From a virus (lineage: Duplodnaviria > Caudoviricetes): a DNA stretch of 64,000 bases. Made by a program: the position numbers and the translations under genes. Where the stretch lies: the IMG/VR virus record IMGVR_UViG_3300022555_000003, positions 160,001 through 224,000 of that record, one strand, 5' to 3'. Every line of letters begins with the position of its first letter. Position 1 is the stretch's first letter. Below are positions 23,156 through 45,662 of this stretch, piece by piece. The notes beneath the pieces were generated by a model, which had not been told where the DNA came from, made no database searches, and saw nothing but the letters and a program-made list of their open reading frames with translations.

Positions 23156-23188
23156 GAAATTGGAGCGTATAAATTACGCTCCATTTTC
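23156..23188. terminator. bidirectional intrinsic terminator between convergent genes
   Basis: GAAAT-TGGAGCGTA-TAAAT-TACGCTCCA-TTTTC. Confidence 0.75.
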
Positions 23189-23953
23189 ATGAGTGAGGAA
23201 ATATTTAAATATTTCTTGTTGATCTTTTCTTATTTTCAATAAATCGTCTGGTAAAGTAAACCACTTAGTATTACCAGTTTCAAAGTCTGTATTAGAAAAG
23301 TTATTAGGATCAAATATTTCACAAGCAAATACATGCAAATCGTATTGTTTATACTTAAAAATATTTATTGGCTCAACTTGTTTGACATTTGAAAGAACTA
23401 ATCCAACTTCTTCTTGTGCTTCTTTCAATGCATTATTTATTGGGCTGTAACTTGGTTCAATTCCACCTTTTGCTAATTGAAATTTTGTTCCACCAAATGA
23501 AGGATCAGACGGTTTCATTAGTAATACTTTTAATTTACCATTATCATAGTAATATGGAATCATCCCCGACTTATCTCTTTGTTTAGTTGAAATATCATGT
23601 AAAAACTTTATAGCTTGTAGCTTATTAGGAAATTCATGAAATAAATTAGTCTTTTCGTCTGTCAGATTGAAAGCATACCCACCACTAAGTGGATGCGAAG
23701 CAATATGTTTAATAATATTAAGAATATTTTTAGTAGTAGATTTAAATTCGTATTCAATTCTGGTTCCTGGAGTAAAGTTAACTCCACCCAAATAAGTAGC
23801 AAATCGTACCGCACCATTGTTCATTTCTAGATCAATATCTGGAACTAGATCTCTGTGTGCTGCTGGATAGTATCCTGAAAATCTTTCAATTAGTTTGCCG
23901 CTGGCTGTTATTAATCCAAAATATGTTTGATGTTCAACTTCATTTAATCTCAT
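23174..23953 (-). CDS. Nudix hydrolase with extra N-terminal domain and Glu-leader
   Basis: KGGIEPSYSPINNALKEAQEEVGL Nudix box; starts MRLNEVE. Confidence 0.82.
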   Translation of the reverse strand: MRLNEVEHQTYFGLITASGKLIERFSGYYPAAHRDLVPDIDLEMNNGAVRFATYLGGVNFTPGTRIEYEFKSTTKNILNIIKHIASHPLSGGYAFNLTDEKTNLFHEFPNKLQAIKFLHDISTKQRDKSGMIPYYYDNGKLKVLLMKPSDPSFGGTKFQLAKGGIEPSYSPINNALKEAQEEVGLVLSNVKQVEPINIFKYKQYDLHVFACEIFDPNNFSNTDFETGNTKWFTLPDDLLKIRKDQQEIFKYFLTHENGA

Positions 23954-25398
23954 TGTTTTAGGTTCCTAATCATATTTTTAGCCAATACTTCTGCATCATG
24001 TCTTGTAAAATTTGGATTCTTAAGAGTAGCATCAAGTATTTTATTTTTGATATCGCCAACTAGTCTACCTTTTGCACCCAACGCCATAATTTCATTACCA
24101 TCCAATATACTCTTAGTATTAAGGATTTGATTGATATCCATTTGTTGGATACGCTTTCTGATCATATTGATTTGTTCTGGCAATCCGTGACCTACAGCAT
24201 GAGAATTATTGTCTGCATTGATTACGTCCAACACATCCTCAAGATTGTGACTAACTCTGTAGATAAACTTTCTAAGAGTTGAATCCTTCATAAGTGTTCC
24301 ATCTGGACCAGCGCTCTTCAATCCCATATGATTACTGATAATAATACAAACTTTATCAATAACTTCAGTTGGGTATTTTAGTCTACGCAAAGCAACTTTT
24401 GCAATGTCTGCTCCAATACTTTCGTGACCAATAAATTGCACTTTTCCATCTTTTTCTGTTCTCGTTGAAGATTTTCCACAATCGTGAAATAGTGCCGCTA
24501 GTCTCTTAATAAGGTCTGGTGAACTATTGTCTAGAACTGTTAGAGTGTGTCCAAGTGCATCTTGGTTATGAAACTTGTTTTGCTTTAGCTTATCTAGTGC
24601 TTTAAGCTCAGGCAAAATTACGTCCATAATGCCAGTAATTCTAAATAGTTCAAATGCTTTACCAGGCTTATTAAGAACAAGAATTTTACTGATCTCATCA
24701 TTGATTCGTTCTGCACTGATACTCTTAAGAGAGGGAGCAGCTTTTTTAATTGATTTAATGACATTAAGTGGAAGAGTAAATCCATACTTAATTGCAAATC
24801 GAACAGCACGAAGAATACGAAGAGGATCTTCTGAAAATATTAGTTCTGGCTTTCCGGTTGTATTGAGTACTCCATTTTTAAGATCTTTCAAACCACGTCC
24901 ACTCAAATCAAGTATCTCACCAGTTTGTAGATTTTGAATTAGAGAATTTATTGTGAAATCTCTGCGTAGTACATCATCCTTCAACGTTCCAGCCACTACA
25001 GCTGGCTTACGACTTCCTGGAGTATATTTTTCTGTCCTGGGTGCTACAAACTCGACATCCATTGGTCCCGAATTTGTTTTGATTGCAAGTTTTGCAGTAA
25101 AATATGTTGGGAACAATACAGGATTGCTATCTTGCTTAAAAATACCAAGCTTTTTAGCAATAAATGTGGCTGCATCAAGCCCAGCAGTAGGTCCACCATC
25201 AACAACAATATCGATATCTTTTGAATTTTTACCCAAAAGTGTATCACGCACAAATCCTCCAGCAATAAATAGCCTTCCGTCGAATTCAGATCCTTCGATT
25301 GCATTTTTCAGAAGTTCAATTGTTTCGTCGGTTTGTGATGATTCCATTATCATACTACTATTATACACTCTTTGGTTGATAATTTCAAATATTTTCAT
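23950..25398 (-). CDS. cca: CCA-adding tRNA nucleotidyltransferase with HD domain
   Basis: AGGFVRD, KDIDI, DDVLRRDFTINS, EDPLRILRAVRF, ERINDE, HDCGK; starts MKIFEI. Confidence 0.92.
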   Translation of the reverse strand: MKIFEIINQRVYNSSMIMESSQTDETIELLKNAIEGSEFDGRLFIAGGFVRDTLLGKNSKDIDIVVDGGPTAGLDAATFIAKKLGIFKQDSNPVLFPTYFTAKLAIKTNSGPMDVEFVAPRTEKYTPGSRKPAVVAGTLKDDVLRRDFTINSLIQNLQTGEILDLSGRGLKDLKNGVLNTTGKPELIFSEDPLRILRAVRFAIKYGFTLPLNVIKSIKKAAPSLKSISAERINDEISKILVLNKPGKAFELFRITGIMDVILPELKALDKLKQNKFHNQDALGHTLTVLDNSSPDLIKRLAALFHDCGKSSTRTEKDGKVQFIGHESIGADIAKVALRRLKYPTEVIDKVCIIISNHMGLKSAGPDGTLMKDSTLRKFIYRVSHNLEDVLDVINADNNSHAVGHGLPEQINMIRKRIQQMDINQILNTKSILDGNEIMALGAKGRLVGDIKNKILDATLKNPNFTRHDAEVLAKNMIRNLKQ

Positions 25399-25407
25399 TA
25401 CTTTCCT

Positions 25408-25884
25408 TTATCCAATATACTTTTCTAATTTATTGCCGTCTGCTTGTTTTTTATATCCTAATCGTTCATAAAATGATTTGGCTGTTGAAGTTAACACTAT
25501 TTTCTTAACTCCTTTTATTTTAGCTTCTTTTTCTAACGCATTTATAACTTGTGATCCAGCGCCCCTTTCAATGGATCCAACATTCATAATTTCCGCTTCA
25601 GTTGATTTTCGTGGGATCCACATTGATCCAGCTGCTACAATCTTATTATTTAAAATAACAAATGCTGTCCTAATGTTAGCTCGCTGTGATAAAGGTGCAT
25701 TGATTTGTATTTCTAATACTGTACTAATATGACATAATGCAGCATATTCATGATTTTCTTCGCCGTTTTCTTCCAATTCAGCTATTCGTTCATCAACTTG
25801 TTTAATTGATTGACGTGCAATATTATCAGACAGATTAATGCCAGTTTGTACATTTTCTTTTAATATCATTTCTGTTATTTTCAT
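25408..25884 (-). CDS. GNAT acetyltransferase with Glu-leader
   Basis: ERGAGSQVINALEKEA (motif A), AKSFYERLGY; starts MKITEMILKE. Confidence 0.8.
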   Translation of the reverse strand: MKITEMILKENVQTGINLSDNIARQSIKQVDERIAELEENGEENHEYAALCHISTVLEIQINAPLSQRANIRTAFVILNNKIVAAGSMWIPRKSTEAEIMNVGSIERGAGSQVINALEKEAKIKGVKKIVLTSTAKSFYERLGYKKQADGNKLEKYIG

Positions 25885-26264
25885 TGCTTTTCTTTTTTCA
25901 CAAACGAATTTACAGGACTTCGTTTGTTTACTGTTGTCGATTCTTCACTTTTGGTTGTACTAATTTGCTTAATTGCACTTTTACCTGGCATCATTTTCAA
26001 AGCTAGTTTAATTGTTTCTTCATCTTCTGGACATTGTGTTGAGATAAACATATTCTCACCAAATATTGAGTCTTCTACATTAGTTTTTGGTAAAACTCCT
26101 GCTTGCAGAGCCCTTGCACGAGCAATAGCCATTCCCATCCTATATTGAAAATATGGGTCTTGATTGGTTAACTCAGGCAGAATAAATGCAGCAGGCAAAG
26201 CTCTTGCTACATCAATTTGAATACTACCTTCTCCACTTTCGTTTAATATTTCCTTAATAGTCAT
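25881..26264 (-). CDS. hypothetical protein with Glu-leader
   Basis: Starts MTIKEILNE; coupled to neighbours. Confidence 0.7.
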   Translation of the reverse strand: MTIKEILNESGEGSIQIDVARALPAAFILPELTNQDPYFQYRMGMAIARARALQAGVLPKTNVEDSIFGENMFISTQCPEDEETIKLALKMMPGKSAIKQISTTKSEESTTVNKRSPVNSFVKKEKQ

Positions 26265-26617
26265 TTAAAGTTTCCTGGATTCTTAGATTTATTGAAAAAG
26301 TCAGCAGTAACTTTATCACTTACATTAACTGGCTTATTCTCTTTTTTGTGAACTACATATGTTGGGTGTGGCAAATTTAATTGATGTGCTAATATTTTAC
26401 TTGGATTACCATAATATGATTGTTGTCCAATTCTAACGCTTATATCATTTATCCTTTGTATTGGAATATAAACTGATAGATTTCCTTTTGTATAAACATG
26501 CTCGTTATTTTGAACTCCATCATACATATATCCGTTGTCAACAAGCATATTATTCGAAATGACCTGATTGGCTGTCATCTTTCCAATTTTTTTGACACTA
26601 ACTTCACAAATTTGCAT
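26261..26617 (-). CDS. hypothetical protein with Glu-leader
   Basis: Starts MQICEV; GATAAATA (26624-26631) lies 6 nt upstream. Confidence 0.7.
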   Translation of the reverse strand: MQICEVSVKKIGKMTANQVISNNMLVDNGYMYDGVQNNEHVYTKGNLSVYIPIQRINDISVRIGQQSYYGNPSKILAHQLNLPHPTYVVHKKENKPVNVSDKVTADFFNKSKNPGNFK

Positions 26618-26626
26618 ATACTATAT

Positions 26627-27286
26627 TTATCTTATTTCTCGTTTTGCTTTTCGGGTTTCAGTTCGTTTTCTTATAGATTCGGCAGATTTTGGTTTGCCTT
26701 TAGATGCTTTTGATAAATTAGCTTTATGCTCATCAGATTTTGGTTTTGACATATTGGCTCTTGTTTCAGCAGATCGATTACTTTGCGCTTTTGACATATT
26801 GGCTCTTGTTTCAGCAGATCGATTACTTTGCGCTTTTGACATATTGGCTTTTGCTTCAGCAGATCTTGGTTTTGACATATTGGTTTTGACTTCATCTGTA
26901 TATTTTCTGCCTTTTTGTGCTTTTGACATAGCAACCGAATGTAAAATTCTAGCAGATTCATATTCTTCTGGAGTTGGAATATATCGACCCGTTTGATTTG
27001 GTCTTATAAAGCACATATTAAAAAATGCATGTGACATTTTATAATAATCAGGACCAATATATAACATCTGAGTTAATAACTGATGACATATAAAATGTTC
27101 TCGTCCAGTTAATACAACTAGATTATCGGGGTCATTTGGGTTGCCAGGTACCCATCCTGCTTTATAAAAACACCTTGGTATTATATGGTGCTTTTCGGTA
27201 TAAGTATCTGATGGAAGTGGAAACACTCTCGCCATCTCAATTATTTCATAATATCTTTTTGTTTGCGTGTTATTGATAAATATCAT
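26627..27286 (-). CDS. HNH homing endonuclease with NUMOD3-type repeats
   Basis: EKHHIIP...LVVLTGREHFICH; repeated SKPKSAETRANM units. Confidence 0.85.
   Translation of the reverse strand: MIFINNTQTKRYYEIIEMARVFPLPSDTYTEKHHIIPRCFYKAGWVPGNPNDPDNLVVLTGREHFICHQLLTQMLYIGPDYYKMSHAFFNMCFIRPNQTGRYIPTPEEYESARILHSVAMSKAQKGRKYTDEVKTNMSKPRSAEAKANMSKAQSNRSAETRANMSKAQSNRSAETRANMSKPKSDEHKANLSKASKGKPKSAESIRKRTETRKAKREIR
26744..26849. repeat. 45-bp tandem repeat encoding NUMOD3-type units
   Basis: Two perfect copies plus a partial copy (SKAQSNRSAETRANM). Confidence 0.85.
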
Positions 27287-28198: not shown

Positions 28199-28231
28199 TT
28201 GTGCTATAATAGTAGTATAAGGAAGTAATAA

Positions 28232-28999: not shown

Positions 29000-29244
29000 G
29001 ACAAAAGTTAATTAATACACTAAAACTATTAGAAAAGAAGGTTCCTCCTCCTAGAAAATGTCATCATTCATTGACGTATAATACATATGGTCCTGACAGA
29101 GATGAACTAGGATTACATGTTAATATAGATGGGTGTTTTGTTACATTATTTTTGCAAGATGATGATTTTGATAAAACTCCTGAAACGTTAGTAGATGATA
29201 TCATATTAGAGTTAGACAAATATTTTAAGAGATTATCAGAATGA
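28996..29244 (+). CDS. hypothetical protein
   Basis: 82 aa with ATGA overlaps on both sides. Confidence 0.65.
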   Translation: MRQKLINTLKLLEKKVPPPRKCHHSLTYNTYGPDRDELGLHVNIDGCFVTLFLQDDDFDKTPETLVDDIILELDKYFKRLSE

Positions 29245-30134
29245 GACAGAAAATATTAGTAACTGGTGCTAGTGGATTGCTTGGAACAGAATTATGTCTC
29301 CAGTTATCCACTCTAGGCGTTGAAGTTTGGGCGGTTGATAACCACAGTAGAAGTTCTAGTATTCCAGTATGCGATAAATTTATCAAATGTGATGTAAGTG
29401 ATCCAAATCAATACTATCATTTTGATTTTGATTTCGACTATATTTTTCATTATGCTGCTGTTAATGGAACTACTAACTTCTATTCAAATCCAAACAAAGT
29501 ATTATATAATAATACAATGGGCGATCTACTAATGTTTGAGTTTGCCAAGAAATGCAAAAATCTTAAAAAACTTATTTATGCTAGTAGTAGTGAAATAGTA
29601 TCTGATGATATAACTCCAACTGCTGAAGTATCAAATTCATCTATAGATGATATTCATAACCCACGTTGGTCTTATAGATTGTCTAAGATGAGTGCAGAAA
29701 ATTATCTAAGTAATAGTGATCTTCCATATTTAATTATTAGATATTTTAATGTATATGGTAACGAAACTTTCCCGGGACACTTTGTATTTGATCAAATTAC
29801 TAAAATTAAAAAAGGTATTTTTGAATTAATTGGTGCTTATGAAACACGTTCTTTTTGTCATGTTAGTGATGCCATAAAAGTTACAATTTGTGCAATACCT
29901 AGTTTTCCAACTAATGAAATTGTTAATATTGGTTCTGATGAAGAGATACTAATTATTGATGCAGCAAATGCATTGGCTAGTATGTTAGGCCACAACTGTC
30001 CAAATTGGAGACTATTAGATGGTATGGAAGGCAGTACTAAAACACGTAGGCCTGATTTATATAAACTATTAAGAGCTGTCCCAAGTTATAAGCCAATGAA
30101 GTTCATTGATGGAATAAAGCTTTTATCTTGTTGA
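29241..30134 (+). CDS. extended SDR, UDP-glucuronate decarboxylase (UXS/ArnA)-like
   Basis: TGASGLLG, ASSSE, PRWSYRLSK, RYFNVYG, TRSFCHVSD. Confidence 0.78.
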   Translation: MRQKILVTGASGLLGTELCLQLSTLGVEVWAVDNHSRSSSIPVCDKFIKCDVSDPNQYYHFDFDFDYIFHYAAVNGTTNFYSNPNKVLYNNTMGDLLMFEFAKKCKNLKKLIYASSSEIVSDDITPTAEVSNSSIDDIHNPRWSYRLSKMSAENYLSNSDLPYLIIRYFNVYGNETFPGHFVFDQITKIKKGIFELIGAYETRSFCHVSDAIKVTICAIPSFPTNEIVNIGSDEEILIIDAANALASMLGHNCPNWRLLDGMEGSTKTRRPDLYKLLRAVPSYKPMKFIDGIKLLSC

Positions 30135-30956
30135 CTGCCAACTCGGCTTAAATTCTTTTACTGAATCAGGTTCAACATCATTATAATGTGTTGTATTAAA
30201 AACTGTATCTGCTCTAGGACTTGTCATTGCGTCAGCTGAGGGTCTAGTAAGTCTACCTTTTTCAGGTTTCTTTTTAAACATGTCTAACAAGCTTTCATTG
30301 ATATCATATTGCTGGTAAAGATTTTCTAACTCTTTAGCATATAGTCTGTCAGAACTAAATTTCTTCATCTTTTCTGGAATCTTCTTAAATAATTTAACCC
30401 ACATATCAACAAATTTTACTGGAAGAGTTCGTTCACTCCAGTTAATTCCAATACCATCTGAATCAATACCGGGTCCATAAATTCTAAACCAAAATGTTTT
30501 ATTGTCAGGTTCAGACTCTGTCCATGCCTTAACTGTATATTGTCCATCTGAAGATTTAATGTCTGGTAAGTCTGATACTCCACCACCCATTGGCTTACTT
30601 CCTTGTGCTGTTGGTTCTGGCGCGTCAAAACTATCTTCTTGAACAGTTGTTTCGCTTACTTTATTATAGTCAGTTACTTCTAACCAACCATCATAATGTA
30701 ATGCTGCTCTAAGCTTATCTTCAAATGCTCTTATTGGTAACTTTTTTGTATTAGATGCAGCAATATTCCACATTGTGGATCCATCGCTATAACCACTATC
30801 AAAAATTGAAGATTTTCCTAATAACTGTCTAACTGCCTTAGTTATTGAGTCACGACCACCTTGAGGAATTTTAACTTTAAACGTTTCAGGAGCTTTAGTA
30901 ACTCCAGCTTCTTGCATACGGGTCATTGTTTCTAACAGTGTTCGAATATTACTCAT
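30123..30956 (-). CDS. hypothetical virion/core-type protein with Glu-leader
   Basis: Likely start MSNIRTLLETMTRMQEA (ATGA overlap); several internal [ILV]xE sites. Confidence 0.65.
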   Translation of the reverse strand: MSNIRTLLETMTRMQEAGVTKAPETFKVKIPQGGRDSITKAVRQLLGKSSIFDSGYSDGSTMWNIAASNTKKLPIRAFEDKLRAALHYDGWLEVTDYNKVSETTVQEDSFDAPEPTAQGSKPMGGGVSDLPDIKSSDGQYTVKAWTESEPDNKTFWFRIYGPGIDSDGIGINWSERTLPVKFVDMWVKLFKKIPEKMKKFSSDRLYAKELENLYQQYDINESLLDMFKKKPEKGRLTRPSADAMTSPRADTVFNTTHYNDVEPDSVKEFKPSWQSTR

Positions 30957-31405
30957 TTCTTTTTTCCTTTTGATTCCATACATCCACCACCAACTGCTTT
31001 TGATGTTTGTTTCTTTGGTTTTCCACCTAGTACTGGTGATTGATTAGGTATCTTTTCTTCTGCATCTAAATATTCTTTAAAAGAATAACTATCAATGGGT
31101 TTGTTTAATAATGCTTCTTCATCTGTTTGCTTTTTCTTATTTTTTGTCATAGCAAAGAAGCTCTTAGTACTTGACCCTGACTTTTTAATATCGCCTTTAG
31201 TGTATGTCCAACCATAATCATTAAGTGTCACTTTAGAATTCCCATAAGTATATATAGATTCGTCTTCTATACGGCCAGCATAGTGCCAATTTAAATTTTC
31301 AAGATATGATCCAATGGTGTCTGGACTCATTCCATATTCGTCATCGCCAGACCATTCTTTAATCATTTTGTCCATTGATTCTAATATTTTTTTAATGTTA
31401 GCCAT
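30953..31405 (-). CDS. hypothetical virion/core-type protein with Glu-leader
   Basis: Starts MANIKKILESMDKMIKE, similar to the adjacent gene's leader. Confidence 0.65.
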   Translation of the reverse strand: MANIKKILESMDKMIKEWSGDDEYGMSPDTIGSYLENLNWHYAGRIEDESIYTYGNSKVTLNDYGWTYTKGDIKKSGSSTKSFFAMTKNKKKQTDEEALLNKPIDSYSFKEYLDAEEKIPNQSPVLGGKPKKQTSKAVGGGCMESKGKKK

Positions 31406-31406: not shown

Positions 31407-31571
31407 TTATTTTCCTGTAATCTGCTTCACTAAATTTGAAAACATACTTCCAATGGCAGAAAATATCTGTTTAAAATTTGCTTTGTTGCTTTGAAAGAAA
31501 ATAACAATTTGCTTTGATACAGCCACAATTGCATTTTTAATACCTACTAAAATCTTTTTAACTATTGTCAT
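31407..31571 (-). CDS. 54-aa cationic amphipathic peptide
   Basis: Manual translation MTIVKKILVGIKNAIVAVSKQIVIFFQSNKANFKQIFSAIGSMFSNLVKQITGK; ATGA-coupled and fills the gap exactly. Confidence 0.6.
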   Translation of the reverse strand: MTIVKKILVGIKNAIVAVSKQIVIFFQSNKANFKQIFSAIGSMFSNLVKQITGK

Positions 31572-32224
31572 TGTATATTCCTTGCAAAATCAGCAAATTG
31601 TTTTGTGATTTTCGCTACTTCATCTTCTTTGGGTGCTTCTTTAACTACTTTCTTTCGAGTAAGTTGTCTAGTAACTGTGCCTGGTCCGCCGTTTAAAAAT
31701 CCATTGCCTCCACCCATACTGCCAGCAATTCCACCGCTTGATGTTCCACCACTCCCTGCGTCTTCACTTAAAAATTTAGCATCTAAGAGTGATAATAAAC
31801 CACTTATAGTATTAGATACTACAGTCTTAGATAACATTCTAACTGGATCAACAACATCCATATAATACTTATTAATAATAATTTGCTCTTGCTCTGCTCC
31901 GTTTGCACCAGCTTTAGGTGAATAAAAGTGTCTAAAATTCTTACTATTAGTACATAACTTTTCGATTTGCTTTACACCTTTATAGATATATTTACGTGAA
32001 TCCGTTGTATACATACCTTCTAACCAAAGTTCGCTTTTAGCAATGTAAAATCTAATATCACCATGTTCTATACTAATTCCAAATTTTTGACTTATATCTT
32101 CATGAAATATTACATCGTTTGATCTAGAATCACTTAGTGAAGGAAGTTTAACTGCGCCAGATTTGGTAATCCAACCAAACATTGTATAGTTTAAATTTCT
32201 AGAAAATACTTCTTTAATTAGCAT
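31568..32224 (-). CDS. hypothetical protein with Glu-leader and Gly/Ser-rich tail
   Basis: True start MLIKEV, 5 nt after GATAAATA (32230-32237); GWITKSG...H.D...IRF domain; EDAGSGGTSSGGIAG. Confidence 0.7.
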   Translation of the reverse strand: MLIKEVFSRNLNYTMFGWITKSGAVKLPSLSDSRSNDVIFHEDISQKFGISIEHGDIRFYIAKSELWLEGMYTTDSRKYIYKGVKQIEKLCTNSKNFRHFYSPKAGANGAEQEQIIINKYYMDVVDPVRMLSKTVVSNTISGLLSLLDAKFLSEDAGSGGTSSGGIAGSMGGGNGFLNGGPGTVTRQLTRKKVVKEAPKEDEVAKITKQFADFARNIQ

Positions 32225-35984: not shown

Positions 35985-36011
35985 ATAACTATTTATCTAC
36001 ATGTTAAAATA

Positions 36012-36786
36012 TCATTCACCAAATAATTTTATTTTAATATCTGGCCACACACTAATGTGAATACCATAATATTCGCCATGTATTAATATTTCATTGCCTG
36101 ATTTTAATGCACTAACGAAGTTTGTTGAATCAATTTGATATTTTGCTTGAAACTTATTAATATTTGCTGGAACGTCTTTGGCATCATCTAATATAATATC
36201 ATCGTGAGTTTTACTCCAACTAAAATCAGCGGAGTCTTTTGGTATAATTATATATCTTGTTCTAGTTGTATTCTGACCAAAATTTAAATAGGCAGAGATT
36301 TGGCTAGCATCTCCGCTAGTAAAAATACTATTTTTTCGTTGAGCTTTAACACCCAATTTATCTAACTGCCTGTCAAACAAAATAGACATATAATTATCAC
36401 TATCAACAGGAATTCTGTCAATGAGACTCCTGTCTTGATATAATGCTCCACGATTTTTTCTGGCACTATATAAACATTCGTCGGTTTGTTTAAACACACT
36501 TAAATATTTTTTACACTCAGCGTTAATTTGCGGAATAAAATTGTCAAATTGTGCTAAGTAATCAGTAAATTGCTTCATCAACATTGTATATTTTACTGTT
36601 TCTTCATCAATATAATCCTGTGTTGATTTATATTCGGGGTTACTTTTATCAATCTTAATAAGATATATTTTTAATTCTTTTATATTGTGATCAATTTGAA
36701 GAATTTTTTTTATTTAAACTAGCTTGTATTTTGGGAACTAAAATTTGTTGATGTTTAGTTTCAGTTAAAAATTCATGTGATCTCAT
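36012..36786 (-). pseudogene. ART-array copy 5, frameshifted in an A8 run (or sequencing error)
   Basis: MRSHEFLTE start at 36786 goes out of frame at the T8 tract near 36704-36711; removing one base joins it to the 190-aa ORF with LYSAR, RKNSIFTSG, GNEILIHG. Confidence 0.7.
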
Positions 36787-37781
36787 TTTAATAATTTACC
36801 TTTGAGTGCTTCCCAAACTGAACTATGCAAGCCATAAAACTCACCATGTATTAGTATTTCATTTCTGGTACTAAGTGCTTTATCAAAATTAGTTGTATCA
36901 ATTTTAAATATGTCTATAAACTTCTTTATATCAACAGTTGGTTTATATTTAAGAAGTTTTTTGGATATTTTCAGTATTGGCGAATTAGGAAATATTTGTT
37001 TAATACGTCTTAAATTAAAATCCATGTTTGTATAATTTTGCTTGTCAAGATTATATAATATCTTGTGATATTCATTACTGGTCCAGTAATGATCATCATC
37101 GTCATTATTATCAATATCATCTGTTACTTTTCCCAACTCATCGCTTATTATTTTTTTAAATGGACTATCTACATAAGTTGGAATTATTGATGAGTTGCTT
37201 AGTATTAGATCGTCGTTGGATTCACTCCAGCTAAAATCAGCTGTACTTTTAGGTATAATAACATACTTTGTTTGGCCATAGCCACCAGCATGTGATGAGT
37301 CAGACGAAGTAAAAATACTATTTCCTCTGCGTGCTTTAACACCCATTTCTTGTAATATTTTGTCAAATGATATAGTAATTCCTTGGTCGCTGTCTCTTAC
37401 TTGTCTATTTTCAACACTACGTCCAACATATAATCCACCATGCATTCTACGGCCACTAAACAAACACTTATCTGTACGTTTGTAAGCGTCTAGATAAGTT
37501 TTACAGTCGTTACGAATTTGAGGAATGAATGGTGTAAATAATTTTAAATAGTCTTGGCATCTCTTTTTAATTCTTGCATACTTAGCTTCTGCAGCATCTA
37601 ATTCAATTTTAACTTGTTCAGCTGATGAAGCATTAAAATCTTTACTGGTGTTGTTTACAAGATTATTATATCTTTTCTTTAAGTAATAAACAGTATGTCG
37701 GTTTAATGTAACATTATTTATTAACTCAGTATTTATAGGTGTTACTAAAACTTCCATATCTATTACTTCATTGATTTTCAT
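36783..37781 (-). CDS. putative ADP-ribosyltransferase, copy 6 (FSGR variant)
   Basis: LFSGRR, RGNSIFTSSDS, TRNEILIHG; leader MKINEVIDME. Confidence 0.7.
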   Translation of the reverse strand: MKINEVIDMEVLVTPINTELINNVTLNRHTVYYLKKRYNNLVNNTSKDFNASSAEQVKIELDAAEAKYARIKKRCQDYLKLFTPFIPQIRNDCKTYLDAYKRTDKCLFSGRRMHGGLYVGRSVENRQVRDSDQGITISFDKILQEMGVKARRGNSIFTSSDSSHAGGYGQTKYVIIPKSTADFSWSESNDDLILSNSSIIPTYVDSPFKKIISDELGKVTDDIDNNDDDDHYWTSNEYHKILYNLDKQNYTNMDFNLRRIKQIFPNSPILKISKKLLKYKPTVDIKKFIDIFKIDTTNFDKALSTRNEILIHGEFYGLHSSVWEALKGKLLK

Positions 37782-38752
37782 TGGAATAACTTCCCTTTAA
37801 CTATGTCCCATATACTGTTATGTATCCCATAATATTTACCATTTATTAGTATTTCGTGATTTGTGTTTAGTACCGCTTCCATTGAGGTTGTATTAATCTT
37901 GAACTTTTCTTGAAACTTGTTGAGATCAATTTTTGGTTTATATTTAAGTAATTGATCTGCTATACTATTAACTGGAGAGTCAGGATATTTATTTTTGACA
38001 TAAGCTAAATCAGTTTTAATGTTATAAAAATTTTGTCTATATAACCATTCTAAGATTTGTAAGTATTTGTAATGTTGTCCAATATCAGAATCACGTTCAA
38101 TTCTTTCTTTTTCATCTTTAAGAATCTTTTCCATATTATCTGGCAATGGTCTGTAAGTTAATTTCAATGAATAACTACTTAGTACTAGATCATCTCTTGT
38201 TTCGCTCCAACTAAAGTTAATGTCATTGAATGGAATTATTATGTATCTATCAGCGCCATATTCTGCAGCATGACATTCACTTGACGTTGTAAAAATACTA
38301 TTTCCTCTACGTGCTTTAACACCAAGTTTTTTTAATAAACTATCAAATTTGGTTGTAACAGAGGCCATACTGTCTTTTGGTCTTCGTTTTTCTAAGCTTT
38401 CATCCTGATACAATGCTCCATGAAATCTACGTCCACTGTATAATACTTGGCCTGTTCTGTTAAATAATTCTAGATAATGACTACAGTTATTTTGAATTAT
38501 TGGTCCGAATTTTGAAAATTCTTTCATTGAATCAGCAAATCTTTTTTGAGTTTTTATAACATTATCTTTAGCTTTTTGCAACTCTTTTTTAAATTTAGCA
38601 GCTTGTTCTGGAGTTGTACTTTCCAACTTGTTATGTTCAATACTTTTTACTTTGTTAATGCCTACTTGCAATGTAGCTTGTAACTCAAGCTGAACACTAT
38701 GTATTAAAACTTTTTCATTTGCGCTTTCAACAATAAATTCGTGTGACCGCAT
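37778..38752 (-). CDS. putative ADP-ribosyltransferase, copy 7 (YSGR variant)
   Basis: LYSGRR, RGNSIFTTSS, TNHEILING; leader MRSHEFIVES. Confidence 0.7.
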   Translation of the reverse strand: MRSHEFIVESANEKVLIHSVQLELQATLQVGINKVKSIEHNKLESTTPEQAAKFKKELQKAKDNVIKTQKRFADSMKEFSKFGPIIQNNCSHYLELFNRTGQVLYSGRRFHGALYQDESLEKRRPKDSMASVTTKFDSLLKKLGVKARRGNSIFTTSSECHAAEYGADRYIIIPFNDINFSWSETRDDLVLSSYSLKLTYRPLPDNMEKILKDEKERIERDSDIGQHYKYLQILEWLYRQNFYNIKTDLAYVKNKYPDSPVNSIADQLLKYKPKIDLNKFQEKFKINTTSMEAVLNTNHEILINGKYYGIHNSIWDIVKGKLFQ

Positions 38753-39801
38753 TACATATCTCCTTTAAACAAATCAAATAAATCAATTTGAACCGCAATG
38801 TATTTTCCATGTATTAGTACTTCGTGCTTTTTAATTATAGCAGTTTGTAAGTTGGTGTCCATTGGTTTATATTTTTTCTTAAATTTATTCAAATTGACTC
38901 GGCTATATTCAATACTGTTTAATGTAAGTAGTAATGATTCAGGAAAATAATAATTTAGAAATTTTCGACCAGTGAAAGAAATAATTCTGTTTCCAGTAGT
39001 TCGAACATCTAGTAGATATTTATAATAACATTGTAGAATTGATAATTTTTCATTATATTCATTATCGTTTGATTTTGATATTAACTCTTTCTCTTCTTCA
39101 ATTTTAGTCTGTATTTCATCTAATTCATTGTCTAAGGCGGCAATCACTTCGGGTGAAAAAGACATTAGTCCATTAAATGAATCACTATGTAATATTAGAT
39201 CCTTTCCAGCCTCTGACCAGGAATAATCAGCTGTATCTTCAGGAAAAATAACATAAATGTTATTACCATATGATTTAGCTTGGCTTATACTACTTGATGT
39301 AAAAATACTGTTAGAACGCAGAGCTTTAATACCTAATTCTTGTAAACAACTATCATATAATATAGTAGAATCTATATTGCTATCTTTTGGAGGTCGATTA
39401 TTAGGACTGTCGGATTCAAATGCAGGAAATGAATTTGACTGACCACGATATAACATTCCACTATGCTTGAAGATTCCAATATATTCACTACATCTTTTTT
39501 TAATTATTGATATCAATAATTTTATGTTTTCTTTTAAATTTTCTTCTTTGTATTGATTTTTTTGAAGTTCAGCAATTCTATCAGTTAATACTTTATATTC
39601 TTTTTTAATTTTAAAAGATTCGTCAGATGTAATTTCTGGATTAAACCATATTTTTTCATGACATTCTGCTTGTTTCTTTTTTAAATCAATAATTACATAA
39701 GTAACCAATGGATCAACAGAAATGTCTACCAATGGATCAACAGAAATGTCTACCAATGGAGTTTTAACTGGTTTTATGTTCTCTACTTCAAATAGTCTCA
39801 T
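38752..39801 (-). CDS. putative R-S-E ADP-ribosyltransferase, copy 8
   Basis: Likely start MRLFEVE at 39801; LYRG, RSNSIFTSSS, KKHEVLIHG. Confidence 0.75.
   Translation of the reverse strand: MRLFEVENIKPVKTPLVDISVDPLVDISVDPLVTYVIIDLKKKQAECHEKIWFNPEITSDESFKIKKEYKVLTDRIAELQKNQYKEENLKENIKLLISIIKKRCSEYIGIFKHSGMLYRGQSNSFPAFESDSPNNRPPKDSNIDSTILYDSCLQELGIKALRSNSIFTSSSISQAKSYGNNIYVIFPEDTADYSWSEAGKDLILHSDSFNGLMSFSPEVIAALDNELDEIQTKIEEEKELISKSNDNEYNEKLSILQCYYKYLLDVRTTGNRIISFTGRKFLNYYFPESLLLTLNSIEYSRVNLNKFKKKYKPMDTNLQTAIIKKHEVLIHGKYIAVQIDLFDLFKGDM
39704..39760. repeat. 24-bp perfect tandem duplication in ART copy 8 N-terminus
   Basis: ACCAATGGATCAACAGAAATGTCT twice plus a partial copy; encodes PLVDISVDPLVDISVDPLV. 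Confidence 0.9.
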
Positions 39802-39802
39802 A

Positions 39803-40816
39803 TTAGTTTTTCTTTTCTGATATAGTAAGTAACGGTTCAAAATTTGAATTAGGTACAAATTCGTGTTTACGTATAACTGTCTTAGCTAAAAGCTCAAGTT
39901 CATCTTTAAATTTGTTCCATACTAGCACGAATGGAGCATTAACATCAGTTTTTAAATCTTTTAATACTGCTTGAAAGCCTGGATCTTTCTTTTTCAATTT
40001 TGGTGCATATTTTCGATAAGTTTCAATGAATAATCTGGCAAGTTCATTGATTGTTATTGGTTTCTTATTACGTAAATCATTTACTCTATCTAAGAAGTGT
40101 GTTGAAAAATGAACATCCATTCCAGCTAGCTCCCAAAATTGATTTAAATACTTCTCCAGAGAATGCAATTCATCATTAGTAATTTCTTCCGTTATTTTCT
40201 TTTTGGTACCTGACGGGGCAACTGCCATAGCGTCCTTTAAGGTTTTGAAATAACTCATCCCATTAACTTTTAACTTTGATATTTGAACAGCTCTTTTTGG
40301 ATCACCAGCTGCTGCTGAAATATAAAATGCTTTTTTATCATCTTCTGCTGCTGCTTTTCTCAATGCTGAAGCACTTCCAAGTCTGGGACTTTGTACGTGA
40401 GTAATTGATTTAAATGTATACTTACGTCCTAACTTGTCTGGAACTCCATTATAATCTTTAAGAAGTTTACCACTCCACCCATTCCAATCTTCAATATCAG
40501 TTACATATATTAAATCAGTTACTTCAGGATGATGTTGATTAATATAAAAAGCTAATGTAATAACTAATACTTCAGGAATGATGTGTCCTTTAAGGGTTGG
40601 ATCAAATGCTTCCATCCAAGCTTTTTTAACTTCGTAAGTAAGTGGATTATCTTTATTATGAGTAGTAGGACTAGTACCAACAAACCATAAATTATTGTCA
40701 GCTGAATGTTTAACAACTTCAAATAATTTAACATGTCCCATATGTACTCCGTTAAATCGACCAAAGCACATAGCGGCTGTTGTATTACTTGCTTCAAATA
40801 ATTGTTTGAGGTTCAT
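39803..40816 (-). CDS. HIGH-superfamily nucleotidyltransferase (cytidylyltransferase-like) fused to a second domain
   Basis: CFGRFNGVHMGH, NPLTYEVK, SASALR; C-terminal domain after KITEE with FSTHFLDRVND...KTVIRK. Confidence 0.75.
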   Translation of the reverse strand: MNLKQLFEASNTTAAMCFGRFNGVHMGHVKLFEVVKHSADNNLWFVGTSPTTHNKDNPLTYEVKKAWMEAFDPTLKGHIIPEVLVITLAFYINQHHPEVTDLIYVTDIEDWNGWSGKLLKDYNGVPDKLGRKYTFKSITHVQSPRLGSASALRKAAAEDDKKAFYISAAAGDPKRAVQISKLKVNGMSYFKTLKDAMAVAPSGTKKKITEEITNDELHSLEKYLNQFWELAGMDVHFSTHFLDRVNDLRNKKPITINELARLFIETYRKYAPKLKKKDPGFQAVLKDLKTDVNAPFVLVWNKFKDELELLAKTVIRKHEFVPNSNFEPLLTISEKKN

Positions 40817-41929
40817 TTAATGTTTTCCTAAGTTTGCTGCTGAGAATTTAAATCTATCAACTAACTTTACTGGGCCTGTATTGGTATGTACAATGAATCC
40901 TTCTTGACCAGTTTCATCACCTATTCCAGCATGTAAATCAGTAGTTGATTTATCAAGTTCATTTATTATCTTAAATTTTGCAACTGTAAGTAAACTAAAC
41001 ACAGTCATTACAGCACTAAATGCACTTTGATTTTTTTTAATATGTTCTAATATTCTAGGAGTTGCTGGTCCAGATTGAGTTTCTAACCATTTAATAAACT
41101 GTTGATCTAAATTAATTAATGATTTACTATATATAACATGTTGATTAACGAATGTTTTCAATAATGTCAAAAATGATTTAATCTTTGCTTCAGCTAAATC
41201 AGACTGATTAAATAATTGATCAATTGATGGACCAAACTTAGCAACTAATTGTGTAGCTTTTTTAAGTTCATCAGGCTCAGTAATAGTTACATTAGGAGCT
41301 AATTGGTCTGACATTATTAATAAGCCATTTACTTGATTTCTTACAACACTTTGTAAATCAGTATCAGTAACGTGATGTCCTGAAGTTGCTCCAGCATCTA
41401 ACTTACTATGCACTATAATTCCAACTTTGCTACGTCCTATTAACTTACCGAGTTCAGTATCAACGTTAACTGAATAAGTAACTGTATTTGGAGTGAAGAC
41501 AAACTTATCGCCTTGTTTTGGAGGTTGAGCTGTATACATTAAGTCTCCAAAAAGATATCCCGAAAAGCTTGTCGGAATACTCTTTTCAAAAATTGGCCAC
41601 AGTGAAGAATATAAAGCAAGTAAATGTTGATTGGTGCCACCTTTTCTAGCTGATAATATTTGTTCAAGTTCTTGTATACTATGTGGAGGAGTACTGATCA
41701 TATACTTATCACCCATAGCAAAACCAACTTTATCTCGTCCCCAGAATATAGCAGGCTTTCCGTCTGGCTTTAAACTTACTGTTTGTGGTTGTTTAATAGC
41801 TTGTCGTAATGCATTGATAGAGTCTGTTATCGCTGCTGATCCAATGAATGCAGCGTCTTCAACATGTTCAATTCGAGCTTTTTTAAGATTATATGTCTCT
41901 TCTTCTGTAATAAATTCTGATGATCGCAT
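40817..41929 (-). CDS. polynucleotide-ligase-like nucleotidyltransferase with Glu-leader
   Basis: Motif I KPDG, motif III-like GDLMY, motif IV EGFIV, motif V VKLV; starts MRSSEFITEE; GATAAATA at 41935-41942. Confidence 0.65.
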   Translation of the reverse strand: MRSSEFITEEETYNLKKARIEHVEDAAFIGSAAITDSINALRQAIKQPQTVSLKPDGKPAIFWGRDKVGFAMGDKYMISTPPHSIQELEQILSARKGGTNQHLLALYSSLWPIFEKSIPTSFSGYLFGDLMYTAQPPKQGDKFVFTPNTVTYSVNVDTELGKLIGRSKVGIIVHSKLDAGATSGHHVTDTDLQSVVRNQVNGLLIMSDQLAPNVTITEPDELKKATQLVAKFGPSIDQLFNQSDLAEAKIKSFLTLLKTFVNQHVIYSKSLINLDQQFIKWLETQSGPATPRILEHIKKNQSAFSAVMTVFSLLTVAKFKIINELDKSTTDLHAGIGDETGQEGFIVHTNTGPVKLVDRFKFSAANLGKH

Positions 41930-41955
41930 ATCAGTATTTATCTGAATTAATAATA

Positions 41956-42687
41956 TTATATTAATCGTTCAGCAAGCATATCTTCGTATATTTCTTTTCT
42001 AATAGCAATATATGTTCCGTGTACTAGTATTTCATGGCCAGATTTTAATGCAGCATCCAGATCAGTCTGGTCAAGTTTAAATACTTGTTGAAATGCTTTC
42101 AGATCCAAAATATTTAAATTTGAACTAGGTTGTAATACTATATCCCGATGTGTTTGAGACCAACTAAAATCATCAGAATTAAACGGAAAGATAACATATA
42201 CTCTACCATATGAGATAGCTTGGCTTACACTAGTTGTAGTAAAAATACTATTTGATCTCAACGCTTTAATGCCTAGTTTGGTTGCAAATTCATCATATTC
42301 TTCTTGAATTACCATGTAACTGTCTTTTGGTTCTCTATCAAAAGGTGAATAAGCTTCGAATGCTGCTGGCTTCTTACTTCTAATTCCACGATATAATACT
42401 CTATCATTCTTTTTAAATGCATCATAAAATTTACTACATTCTGATTTAATTCTATTAGATATTTGTTCGTAAGTTTTTATTATGTCAGTATTTGAATTAA
42501 TCTTTTCTAATTCATCATTGGCGCGTGCAAGCTTCTCTTGAAATAATTTTTTTCGTGATTCACTAGTAGTCTGATTTATAATTCTAACAAAAAATTGTAT
42601 GTTAAGTTCGATATTTTCTTTAGCAATTGGATCGTAATCTGCTAGTAAAGTAACTACATTTGATTTTGATATTTCGTTTAGTCTCAT
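41956..42687 (-). CDS. putative R-S-E ADP-ribosyltransferase, copy 9 (short form)
   Basis: LYRG, RSNSIFTTTS, SGHEILVHG; leader MRLNEIS. Confidence 0.75.
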   Translation of the reverse strand: MRLNEISKSNVVTLLADYDPIAKENIELNIQFFVRIINQTTSESRKKLFQEKLARANDELEKINSNTDIIKTYEQISNRIKSECSKFYDAFKKNDRVLYRGIRSKKPAAFEAYSPFDREPKDSYMVIQEEYDEFATKLGIKALRSNSIFTTTSVSQAISYGRVYVIFPFNSDDFSWSQTHRDIVLQPSSNLNILDLKAFQQVFKLDQTDLDAALKSGHEILVHGTYIAIRKEIYEDMLAERLI

Positions 42688-43415
42688 AATAGTTTCTCAA
42701 TGATCATATCTTCATATAAATCATGCCTAACTGCAATATACTTACCATGTATTAGTACTTCATGTTCAGAAAATAATGCCTCAGGTAAATTAGTCTGATC
42801 AAGTTTATATGTCTGTTGAAACTCTTGTACGTCTTTAAAATGTAATGGCTTCTCAGCGAATAATACAAGATCCTTTTTTGCATGAGACCAGCTAAAATCA
42901 GCTGAACTCTTAGGAAATACGACGTATAGATCGCCATAAATTCTAGCTTGATCTTCGTCTGACGATGTGAAAATACTATTTGATCTTTGTGCTATAATAC
43001 CAAGTTGCTCAGCAAATCTATCAAATTTTAATGTATTAACTAATCCGCTGTCCTTAGGTCGTCTGTCAGTTGGACTATTCGATTCGAATGCTGCTGGTTT
43101 GTTATGTCTGATGCCTCTATATAATACAGCATTACTTCGTTTGAATATACTATAAAATTTACTACATTCATTTTTAATCTTATCAGCTAATTCTTTTAAT
43201 ATATCATTTGACTTATTATATTCTTCAATCTTTCTTAATTGTTCTTTGGCGTGGTCTAACTCAACCTGAAATATTGCTTTACGTTCAGGAGTAACATAAT
43301 CTCTATTTAATTGATCAGTATAATACTGAATGTCTAAATTTATGCTGTTAAGTTTAGTAGCGTTATACTTATCAATTAATGTCGTTATGTTAGTAGATAT
43401 TTCATTCAATCTCAT
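42684..43415 (-). CDS. putative R-S-E ADP-ribosyltransferase, copy 10 (short form, ExE)
   Basis: LYRG, RSNSIFTSSD, SEHEVLIHG; leader MRLNEIS. Confidence 0.75.
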   Translation of the reverse strand: MRLNEISTNITTLIDKYNATKLNSINLDIQYYTDQLNRDYVTPERKAIFQVELDHAKEQLRKIEEYNKSNDILKELADKIKNECSKFYSIFKRSNAVLYRGIRHNKPAAFESNSPTDRRPKDSGLVNTLKFDRFAEQLGIIAQRSNSIFTSSDEDQARIYGDLYVVFPKSSADFSWSHAKKDLVLFAEKPLHFKDVQEFQQTYKLDQTNLPEALFSEHEVLIHGKYIAVRHDLYEDMIIEKLL

Positions 43416-44140
43416 AATAGTTTCTCTTTTATCATATCTTCATATACTTGATATTTAATAGCAATATATCGTCCATGTATTAATACTTCATGTTCTGATT
43501 TTAATGCAGCATCCAGATCTGTTTTCTTTAATTTGTATATCTCTTGGAATGATTTTAAGTCCTTAAATCCAGCTTTATGTTCAAGATATAATATAATTTC
43601 TCGTCGAGATTCTGACCAGCTAAAATCAGCTGTATCTTTTGGGTATATGACAAATAGAATGCCATAATATCTAGCGTGACATTCACTCGAAATAGTGAAA
43701 ATACTATTTGATCTAAGTGCTTCAATTCCGAGTTCTTGAGCAAACTTATCAAATAATATTGTATTATTAACATCACTGTCCTTAGGTTCTCTATTTACTG
43801 GGCTCATTGATTCAAATGCTGGCGGATGTTTATATTTGTATCCTCTAAACAATACTTTATCACATTTCTTAAAGGCATTATAAAAGTCTCTACATTCAAC
43901 TTTAATTTTAGTAGCTAATTTTTCCAATGAACCTTCCGGAAGTGATTCCAGATATGTTAATTCTTCTAGTGCATCTTCTAAATATTGTTGAGTTATTTTT
44001 TTATGCTCTTCTGTTTGTGGCTGCCGCATAAGTTTTTTATAATATGATATTTGCGAATTAATTGAATTTCTCCTAATAGGATCAAAATTCGCCGGTAGTA
44101 ACAGTATTTTGTTTGAATCAATCATTTCATATAGACGCAT
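43412..44140 (-). CDS. putative R-S-E ADP-ribosyltransferase, copy 11 (short form, ExE)
   Basis: LFRG, RSNSIFTISS, SEHEVLIHG; leader MRLYEMI; GATAAATA at 44146-44153. Confidence 0.75.
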   Translation of the reverse strand: MRLYEMIDSNKILLLPANFDPIRRNSINSQISYYKKLMRQPQTEEHKKITQQYLEDALEELTYLESLPEGSLEKLATKIKVECRDFYNAFKKCDKVLFRGYKYKHPPAFESMSPVNREPKDSDVNNTILFDKFAQELGIEALRSNSIFTISSECHARYYGILFVIYPKDTADFSWSESRREIILYLEHKAGFKDLKSFQEIYKLKKTDLDAALKSEHEVLIHGRYIAIKYQVYEDMIKEKLL

Positions 44141-44158
44141 AGTAATATTTATCTAAGT

Positions 44159-44890
44159 TTATAGTAATTTTTTACTTACCATTTCGTTGTATATGTCGTC
44201 TATAATAGCAATATATCTACCATGAATTAATATTTCGTGACCTGATAATAAAGCTTTATCTAAACTAAGTTGATCAAGCATAAATTTTTGTTGAAATAAT
44301 TGGATTGATGTGCAACTATCTAACATGTAAGGAACTAATACTATATCAGAATATTTCATTGACCACGAAAAATCAGCTGTATCTTTTGGAAAGATATTAT
44401 ATAAATAATATCCATACTCTTTAGCTTGAGATTTTTGAGTAGTAGCGAAGATACTGTTTGACCTGAGTGCTCTAATTCCAAGCTGTTCAGCAAATGTATC
44501 AAATTTTATTGTGGCTATTTCATTACTATCCTTTGGCCGACGGCCTTCTATACTAGTTGATACAAATACTGGTGGTCTCTCATTTCTAATTCCTCTAAAT
44601 AATACCTTGTTTACTTTCTTACAAGCATTATAAAATTTACCACATTCATTTTTAACTTTATCGGCTATTTTTTTAATCTTTTCATCTATTTCTTTGGCAT
44701 CAATATCATTTAGAATATCTAGATTGTAGTCTATAGATTGTTGTAATGACTTTCTATCTTCTGGATCAGTTGAATCATTTTGTAATTTAATCAGATTAGC
44801 AATATTCTTCTCAGCACTCTCTTTTTCATCTAATCCTATTTCAGATAGTAACGAAATTATATTTTCATCAGACATTTCATATAGACGCAT
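44159..44890 (-). CDS. putative R-S-E ADP-ribosyltransferase, copy 12 (short form)
   Basis: LFRG, RSNSIFATT, SGHEILIHG; leader MRLYEMSDE; TATAAATA at 44896-44903. Confidence 0.75.
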   Translation of the reverse strand: MRLYEMSDENIISLLSEIGLDEKESAEKNIANLIKLQNDSTDPEDRKSLQQSIDYNLDILNDIDAKEIDEKIKKIADKVKNECGKFYNACKKVNKVLFRGIRNERPPVFVSTSIEGRRPKDSNEIATIKFDTFAEQLGIRALRSNSIFATTQKSQAKEYGYYLYNIFPKDTADFSWSMKYSDIVLVPYMLDSCTSIQLFQQKFMLDQLSLDKALLSGHEILIHGRYIAIIDDIYNEMVSKKLL

Positions 44891-44898
44891 AGTAATAT

Positions 44899-45662
44899 TT
44901 ATATAAGCCTATTATAATACCTGATCTAACAGCAATATATGTGCCTTTAATCCAAATTTCGTGTCCAGATAATAATGCTTCTTTTAAATTAGTATCTGAA
45001 TGTAATCCTAAAACCTTAACCATATTATTAATATTAAAATTAGTACGTAGTTTAAACTCTCCAAATTGCTTTTTAATTGGATGATTCAGGTAATCGACTC
45101 ATGTATATTTCTAGAAGATTACGTTGTTCAAGCACATTATTAATAATAGACAAATACATTCTATTAATAGTTCCATGGTAATTATCTTCAACTATTGAAG
45201 GATTACTTGTTGGATACTTATCTATATAATCTTTTAAAGCTTTAGTGAATTGACTAGTATAAGAGTATGCTCCATATTTAATTACTGAATCAAAATCAAA
45301 AACTAAGTCATCATCATTTTCACACCAAGTATAATGAAAACCATTTTTTGGATATATTTGAAATACTTCACCAAAATACTTTGCTAATTTATGTGAAGTA
45401 GTTGCATATATAGAATTTAGACGCCTAGCTTCAACACCAATACTATCAAGACCCCAATCTATTACTCTATATATTTCTGCATTAGATGTCTTTGGAATAC
45501 GATCAGTACTACTACTATCTATATAATAGTTATTCTCATCTCTGGAATGACCACGTGTTCCATGTAGTAATGGATGTTCAGGAACTTCTTTCAATACCTT
45601 AAGATAATCAGAACACTCAGTAGCTATTTTTTCTTCTAATGTGATATTTCAAATAAGCGCAT
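44899..45662 (-). pseudogene. ART-array copy 13, at least two frameshifts
   Basis: MRLFEI start at 45662 is out of frame with LEEKIATECSDY; a second shift near 45076-45100 separates the core (LLHG, RLNSIYATTS) from LLSGHEIWIKG. Confidence 0.7.

Follow-up and report, generated by a model that had tools for sequence, protein, structure and literature searches.

A short N-terminal peptide shared by about 40 genes of an uncultured T4-like jumbo phage is probably a head-loading propeptide on a large enzyme set

The stretch analyzed here, the window, is a 64,000-nt segment covering bases 160001-224000 of a 242,080-bp IMG/VR virus record (IMGVR_UViG_3300022555_000003; hereafter G000), whose gene content identifies it as part of an uncultured, distant T4-like myovirus, a freshwater jumbo phage. 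A block of genes at window positions 23174-45662 encodes proteins that begin with a common short leader peptide (the tag), which is found on about 40 genes of the phage in total. We conclude that the tag is probably a propeptide of the T4 type for head loading and cleavage, carried here by an unusually large number of enzymes. Because the tag closely resembles the T4 head-loading peptide, the phage probably injects a ready-made enzyme kit together with its DNA.

The initial annotation had quoted 23 tagged N-termini from the block, and all of them are encoded there on the minus strand. Intact open reading frames (ORFs) are headed by 21 of these leaders, and broken paralogues by the other two (MRSHEFLTE at 36786 and MRLFEI at 45662). 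Three leaders (MSNIRTLLE, MLIKEV and MRLFEVE) are operon-packed internal ATG starts rather than the starts of the longest ORF. Amino-acid composition predicts 0.6 occurrences of the strict pattern M-[KRTQ]-[ILF]-x-[ED]-[ILVMF] among 400 ORF starts, and independent position-specific frequencies predict 2.0; the pattern was found at 22 first-ATG starts in the 242-kb record (400 N-termini), and after 10 of 1,387 internal Met residues. Once a few obviously over-extended ORF starts had been corrected, it was present in 24 of 50 ORFs in three clusters versus 1 of the other 350 (Fisher p = 1.3e-23), a homing-endonuclease paralogue. The clusters lie at genome positions 17997-25451 and 123703-130491 and in the window block, which is the largest and taken alone gave 14 of 30 versus 11 of 370 (p = 1.7e-11). 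Homing-endonuclease paralogues starting MTFSEF or MIFSEF were rejected as tag bearers, since this N-terminus belongs to the conserved core of their family. In looser form, [LIFMV]-x-E ended at residues 5-12 in 20 of the 21 intact tagged genes, the site of MLIKEV lying at residue 5; as a lone detector this rule was rejected, because it also matched 11% of unrelated ORFs.

The pattern is therefore as scarce outside the block as the initial annotation had held, but about half of the tagged genes sit in the two further clusters. An equal frequency of the motif in early genes had been named as a finding that would speak against the proposal; the parts of G000 beyond the three clusters, including its supposed early genes, lacked the motif, so this test fails to refute it. 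The idea of a single 22.5-kb cassette needs revision: the tagged block is real, but it consists of several late operons with untagged inserts and holds about half of the phage's tagged genes.

At least nine unrelated protein families carry the tag, and tagless homologues exist elsewhere, in agreement with the earlier claim of a portable module. Among metagenomic homologues of the CCA-adding enzyme, [LIFMV]-x-E was present inside the first 14 residues in 97 of 115 evaluable sequences, with the Glu exactly 28 residues ahead of the GG motif in 72 cases; where the site was present, P3 was L or I in 87 of 97 and P1' was S or G in 64 of 97. Natural tagless versions also exist: about ten homologues start immediately past the Glu site. 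Similarly, metagenomic DUF6267 homologues place variable leaders (MRFREIITE, MKVTELLVE, MRATEFLTE) before a conserved core. Both this enzyme and the nucleotidyltransferase are tagged in the marine T4-like phage Melnitz, where the nucleotidyltransferase homologue starts MKKFSEIIE; the DUF6267 homologue of cyanophage S-PM2 and the cytidyltransferase of phage CBB, a homologue of the nucleotidyltransferase, have no tag. Near 80 loci with metagenomic DUF6267 homologues, in relatives with a GC content of 34-56%, 81 of 1,118 neighbouring ORFs begin with the strict pattern. The leaders of the block are written in varied codons (AGA, CGT, CGG and CGA for Arg-2, and eight codons for the I, L or F at position 3). 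In the AlphaFold model of a 243-aa paralogue, residues 1-8 are disordered and are followed by a helical hairpin and then an alpha/beta domain. Taken together, these comparisons indicate a portable tag that is under selection as a peptide and specific to the three clusters.

Fused and separate forms of the cargo were also seen. In G001, a relative with 45% GC, a 1,675-aa protein starting MDIYEL (127274-132301) contains a domain that corresponds to a separate tagged 119-aa metallopeptidase-like gene here, so that the group has cargo in both fused and split versions. Fusion proteins of 620-640 aa in other large phages (P0033-P0120) start M-x-L-x-E-GGNVFKD and have DUF6267 behind a nucleotidyltransferase-like domain, and a separate tagged protein of G000 (genome 128322-129026) starts MRIKELLMEGGNVF. 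Another AT-rich phage (L118, 4686-13054) has a homologous paralogue array without the leader, in which an L-x-P-G-[QE] motif lies 10-25 residues from the N-terminus.

Mullaney and Black reportedly described, in 1996, a capsid targeting sequence (CTS) and a gp21-cleaved propeptide on the internal proteins (IPs) and Alt of T4. The likeness to T4 leaders that had been proposed for the tag is evident in the T4 record AF158101, in which IPII and IPIII start MKTYQEFIAE followed by A, gp24 starts MAKINELLRE followed by S, and Alt starts MELITE followed by L; in the same record gp22 starts MLKEQLIAE, gp21 MNEPQLLIE and gp67 MEGLIE. T4-like leaders in the window are MRSSEFITE, MRSHEFIVE, MKINDLLLE and MNLKQLFE. 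In the cluster next to the head-completion and terminase genes (cluster A), a 199-aa protein starts MKTFTQYLSE, close to MKTYQEFIAE, and the syntenic cluster of G001 has MKTFAEYLTE, MKTLREYITE and MRAREFITE. MRSSEFITE, MRSHEFIVE, MKTFTQYLSE and MKTFAEYLTE are near the 10-residue CTS, whereas the commoner MRLNE type is Alt-like and too short to compare. From these sequences, the tag has two forms: a minimal M-[KR]-[IL]-x-E, which is Alt-like and the commonest, and a form of 8-10 residues that ends in hydrophobic-x-E. In T4, the first 10 residues of IPIII are sufficient for head targeting, after which propeptides of 10-19 residues are cut away (PMC9026906). Cleavage at ITE-6 shortens Alt by six residues (PMC5694885), and gp21 is thought to cut itself at LIE-9 (PMC9026906, PMC9958956).

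Portal, protease, scaffold and capsid genes were not found in the 242-kb record by Pfam families or by phmmer and tblastn with T4 gp20, gp21, gp22, gp23 and gp24. They are missing because the record is a fragment (74% complete by CheckV), and walking off the contig end recovered them. The walk led from the left end of G000 through contig L012 to a 61-kb contig, the IMG/VR record named G006, whose GC content of 31.4% matches that of G000 (about 31%). L012 bridges the end of G006 (99.9% over 1,870 nt) and the left end of G000 (99.5%), and the last 1,092 nt of G006 equal the right end of G000 at 100% identity. G006 encodes a Peptidase_S77 protein of the gp21 family (19096-19734; 92 bits), Gp23 (327 bits), a scaffold protein (18000-19091) and a portal. 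In an alignment of its protease with T4 gp21, His85, Ser140 and the N-terminal L-x-E were invariant, and two core proteins of the contig begin with MSRNFERLINFIIE and, counted from the second Met, with MILNEIFE. G001, which is 99% complete, has both the Peptidase_S77 and the Gp23 family. These matches assign a gp21-family prohead protease to the phage lineage. The 199-aa protein of cluster A matches phrog_14802, 'virion structural protein', and gave no tblastn match among named phages. A cytidylyltransferase and other enzymes have been detected in purified virions of cyanophage S-CREM2 (PMC10665884).

The initial annotation had also placed the tagged genes under late promoters, and (G/T)ATAAATA boxes, which resemble such promoters, do head the tagged operons as well as tail, fibre and head operons. 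Of the four NATAAATA variants, GATAAATA is the most frequent (65 of 175), and it lies 6-22 nt upstream of the gp15-like, tube, tail, fibre and other virion genes, and also upstream of the first genes of tagged operons; TATAAATA precedes the head operon on G006. The late-type box is mostly GATAAATA, unlike the TATAAATA of T4. Often just 6 nt separate it from the ATG, and the late mRNAs are accordingly expected to be nearly leaderless.

The tag, its specificity and portability, the protease gene and the promoter-like boxes are read directly from the sequence, whereas core binding, the cut after Glu, ejection and the roles of the cargo belong to the following inferred course of events. The tagged genes would be transcribed late, together with the head genes, from (G/T)ATAAATA promoters, and their products would enter the scaffolding core of the prohead. 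The gp21-family serine protease would then cleave past the Glu, releasing mature enzymes within the capsid, and these would exit with the DNA when the next host is infected. In this block, the cargo would comprise the NUDIX protein, the CCA-adding enzyme, the GNAT protein, the HxGH nucleotidyltransferase, the ligase-like DUF6267 protein, 13 possibly ADP-ribosyltransferase (ART)-like paralogues and several unassigned proteins. A role of this kit in host takeover and counter-defence, through tRNA repair, NAD-related chemistry, and protein or nucleic-acid modification, is plausible. As a speculation, part of the targeting determinant of the five-residue leaders may reside in the variable helical hairpin behind them. 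We offer a wider proposal more tentatively, as a possibility that falls short of an even chance: a tag of 5-10 residues would make the injected set predictable from sequence in a large uncultured group of T4-like jumbo phages. In the phage studied here, about 40 preloaded proteins, among them a tRNA-repair pair (the CCA-adding enzyme and the KxDG ligase-like protein), NAD and nucleotide enzymes and the 13 diversifying paralogues, would form a counter-defence arsenal that acts before phage expression, and the ClpA-like and J-domain-like proteins might help to load it.

Several observations weigh against head loading by the tag. The homologous enzymes of Melnitz and S-PM2 are located among replication genes, and some homologues of the paralogue family in another phage have no tag. 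The five-residue leaders are shorter than the 10-residue T4 CTS known to be sufficient for targeting. In T4, the CTS proper is conserved among internal proteins only (PMC9958956), and a cleavage site is therefore no proof of targeting. The loose form, [LIFMV]-x-E within residues 5-12, is weak by itself, since 38 of 350 unrelated ORFs match it too. Finally, the head module is on a separate contig, and the overlaps are its sole link to G000.

In a different reading, the peptide would be a prohead-protease substrate or regulatory propeptide, and the tagged proteins would be internal head or assembly components that are retained in the capsid or degraded, not effectors passed on to the next host. 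T4 gp22, gp67, gp68 and gp21 have similar N-termini yet are degraded scaffold or core proteins (PMC9026906), the core proteins of G006 bear the same type of leader, and cluster A has head-completion and terminase genes for neighbors. However, the cargo includes folded enzymes (CCA-adding, NUDIX, GNAT, nucleotidyltransferase and ligase-like) with no obvious role in assembly, and in T4 the comparable proteins with an enzymatic or inhibitor body, Alt and IPI, are ejected (PMC5694885, PMC3012670). We therefore regard this reading as rather unlikely. It is less probable still that the peptide addresses a target other than the prohead, such as the ClpA-like unfoldase or J-protein of the phage, or is a stability or degradation signal. 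The ClpA-like and J-domain-like genes lie directly upstream of the block, co-oriented and with a late-type box, and a cut past Glu-5 would expose I, V, M, L or F; Iyer et al. proposed that phage ClpA or ClpX may translocate unfolded proteins or aid virion assembly (PMC7824862). Yet no known Clp tag has such a form, the leaders have closer matches in T4 propeptides and at the starts of the protease and core proteins that the phage itself encodes, and a Clp address is compatible with head loading.

The two other explanations are contradicted by the data. A by-product of nucleotide constraints on the starts of short-leader late mRNAs in an AT-rich genome might be suspected, given the 31% GC of the genome and the many late-type boxes just ahead of the ATG; this is very improbable, as the motif is absent from structural late genes whose box and spacing are the same, synonymous codons vary, the pattern holds at 45-56% GC, and a clean N-terminal module is what separates tagged from tagless homologues. 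Functionless common descent of duplicated genes, suggested by the 13 of 23 tagged genes that belong to one family, is scarcely credible when the tag spans so many unrelated families, when alignment shows the leader pattern kept in paralogues while the following 60-80 residues diverge freely, and when hundreds of distant homologues retain the pattern with other residues.

The enzyme kit named by the initial annotation holds in part. The NUDIX, CCA-adding/HD, GNAT (weakly), CTP_transf_like and DUF6267 assignments all have Pfam scores above the curated cut-offs. The DUF6267 protein is putatively ligase-like, given its invariant KxDG motif. The ART call is unproven. It concerns the family to which 13 of the 23 tagged block genes belong as paralogues, and in which alignment revealed conserved YRG, RSNS and HE motifs that fit the catalytic R, S-x-S and E of R-S-E ARTs such as Alt, ModA and ModB. 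The paralogues did not match the Pfam ART family even at a relaxed threshold, a comparison with Alt by hhalign gave a probability of 0.8%, and a PDB profile search gave no match. Foldseek against PDB was not significant, its weak matches including OspC3, PARP1 and Arr. Structural neighbors in the Atlas were DUF3841 (TM 0.56), Arr (0.44) and ART-PolyVal (0.41); AFDB clusters contained uncharacterised proteins only, and a wide structural search (VIA) was swamped by the helical hairpin. Because the sequence and fold tests were all non-conclusive, we do not call these paralogues ARTs; they are possibly ART-like. One paralogue, at 32229-32723, is truncated. Together with the two that are broken just past an intact leader, it suggests fast turnover of the family.

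In our interpretation from the sequences, the system is an expanded variant of the known T4 capsid-targeting and propeptide system. As with T4 IPI-III and Alt, otherwise unrelated proteins start with a short peptide ending in hydrophobic-x-Glu (PMC3012670, PMC9026906), and the phage has late-type boxes, a gp21-family protease and a T4-like virion module. The tagged proteins differ in number (about 40 tagged genes versus 4-5 in T4), in cargo (sizeable enzymes and a 13-member paralogue family versus small basic proteins) and in the commonest leader, which here is the five-residue minimal form. As in the hypervariable IP loci of T-even phages (PMC3012670, its reference 23), the leader alone is conserved and the bodies are exchangeable, but the scale of 22 kb, the enzyme content and the three clusters in a single genome are different. 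The ejection or inner-body proteins of phiKZ, 201phi2-1 and SPN3US (PMC5694885, PMC7411985) offer another parallel from jumbo phages, with many packed proteins, including paralogue families, and cleavage at Glu by a gp21-related protease; their motif, however, is S/A/G-x-E or A-x-E and their propeptides often exceed 100 residues. Membership of this phiKZ-type class was rejected, since P3 here is L, I or F and leaders have 5-10 residues, as in the T4 type. Polyvalent proteins (Iyer et al. 2017, PMC5512222) similarly combine ART, GNAT, NUDIX and peptidase batteries proposed to be delivered with the DNA, but as a fused giant polypeptide, whereas here each domain has a separate gene and its own tag.

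The CTS has already been suggested to let T4-like phages load varied proteins (reviewed in PMC3012670 and PMC9026906). A survey of jumbo phages reported CCA enzymes, ARTs and ClpA in T4-related groups, and the passages of it consulted here mention no shared leader (PMC7824862). Our search of the published literature found no description of comparably large tagged enzyme sets. Should the tag prove to be a mark of head-loaded proteins, genome sequence alone would suffice to list what many uncultured T4-like phages inject, and the CCA-adding enzyme, the ligase-like protein and the NUDIX and nucleotidyltransferase proteins of this phage would be new virion passengers. The T4 IP/Alt model, built on a few small proteins, would then cover a large and fast-evolving arsenal of enzymes, and the tagged genes would supply candidate counter-defence factors as well as natural leaders with which foreign proteins could be loaded into T4-type capsids.

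The features of the block and of its upstream neighbors are collected in Table 1. The block additionally holds an untagged 54-aa ORF, and it had no megablast match among named phages. The ClpA-like and J-domain-like proteins may assist, as chaperones, in assembling the head or loading the cargo, and the J-like gene has GATAAATA 7 nt upstream.

Table 1. Tagged genes, untagged inserts, promoter-like boxes and upstream neighbors of the block (window positions)
Feature	Position	Strand	Evidence
Tagged NUDIX-domain protein, 259 aa, MRLNEV	23174..23953	-	Pfam NUDIX 36 bits, residues 138-250
Tagged CCA-adding/poly(A) polymerase-family enzyme with HD domain, 482 aa, MKIFEI	23950..25398	-	Pfam PolyA_pol, PolyA_pol_RNAbd, HD
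Tagged GNAT acetyltransferase-like protein, 158 aa, MKITEMILKE	25408..25884	-	Pfam Acetyltransf_1 23.5 bits, above cut-off
Tagged protein, no function assigned, 127 aa, MTIKEILNE	25881..26264	-	G001 homologues start MRAREFITE, MRAREFVTE
Tagged protein, no function assigned, 118 aa, MQICEV	26261..26617	-	First gene of the 26617-23174 operon; GATAAATA 7 nt upstream
Late-promoter-like box GATAAATA	26624..26631	-	Box scan
Homing-endonuclease-like gene interrupting the block	26627-27286		
Sugar-nucleotide cassette interrupting the block: GT2 glycosyltransferase, UDP-glucose dehydrogenase-like gene, epimerase	27398-30134	+	
Tagged protein, no function assigned, 277 aa, MSNIRTLLE	30123..30956	-	No Pfam or PHROG match
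Tagged protein, no function assigned, 150 aa, MANIKKILE	30953..31405	-	N-terminus
Tagged protein, no function assigned, 218 aa, MLIKEV	31568..32224	-	N-terminus
Four tagged R...SNS...HE paralogues, MKIIDLME, MKITDLME, MKINDLLLE, MRFSEIINE	32229..35534	-	Alignment; phrog_11975
Untagged Dps/ferritin-like gene	35538-35984	-	Pfam Ferritin 66 bits
Late-promoter-like box GATAAATA preceding the Dps/ferritin-like gene	35990..35997	-	Box scan
Broken paralogue: MRSHEFLTE, stop and frameshift, then 190-aa remainder	36012..36786	-	Three-frame translation
Three tagged paralogues, MKINEV, MRSHEFIVE, MRLFEV	36783..39801	-	Alignment
Tagged HxGH nucleotidyltransferase with extra C-terminal domain, 337 aa, MNLKQLFE	39803..40816	-	Pfam CTP_transf_like 33.5 bits
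Tagged DUF6267 protein with KxDG ligase-type motif, 370 aa, MRSSEFITE	40817..41929	-	Pfam DUF6267 117 bits
Late-promoter-like box GATAAATA	41935..41942	-	Box scan
Four 242-243-aa paralogues, MRLNEI (two), MRLYEM (two)	41956..44890	-	Alignment
(G/T)ATAAATA boxes	44146-44153, 44896-44903	-	Box scan
Broken paralogue: MRLFEI, then stop; remainder in another frame	45073..45662	-	Three-frame translation
ClpA-like double-AAA+ ATPase and J-domain-like protein, co-oriented, directly upstream of the block	46771..49829	-	Pfam Clp_N, AAA, AAA_2, ClpB_D2-small (ClpA-like)

Family scans of G000 identified a tail sheath, a tube, gp15-like and gp4-like head-completion proteins, a split large terminase, gp32 and UvsX, and within the window a split family-B DNA polymerase and a DsbA-like protein. 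Identical DNA is present in freshwater and lake metagenomes from four studies, and none of the listed data sets that contain it is recorded as RNA. The termini of G000 (genome 1-372 and 240920-242080) are inverted repeats within or beside tail-fibre genes. Assemblies disagree on how the 61-kb head-module contig is joined, either to the right end of G000 (reversed) or to its left end (L012, L121, G006 and L127-L130); the difference reflects either an invertible segment or an assembly break at the repeats. The true genome size is at least about 300 kb. On G006, the portal homologue (31764-34952) has 1,062 aa, compared with 593 aa in G001, and may hold an insertion or intein, and a 5,402-aa protein with laminin-G-like domains (39192-55400) follows the baseplate genes. 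The homing-endonuclease-like family has five copies, at window 26627-27286 and 60932-61798, genome 20592-21305 and 80356-80835, and G006 38823-39191. All five have the N-terminal sequence '...KRYYEIIE' in common, and one of them splits the tagged block.

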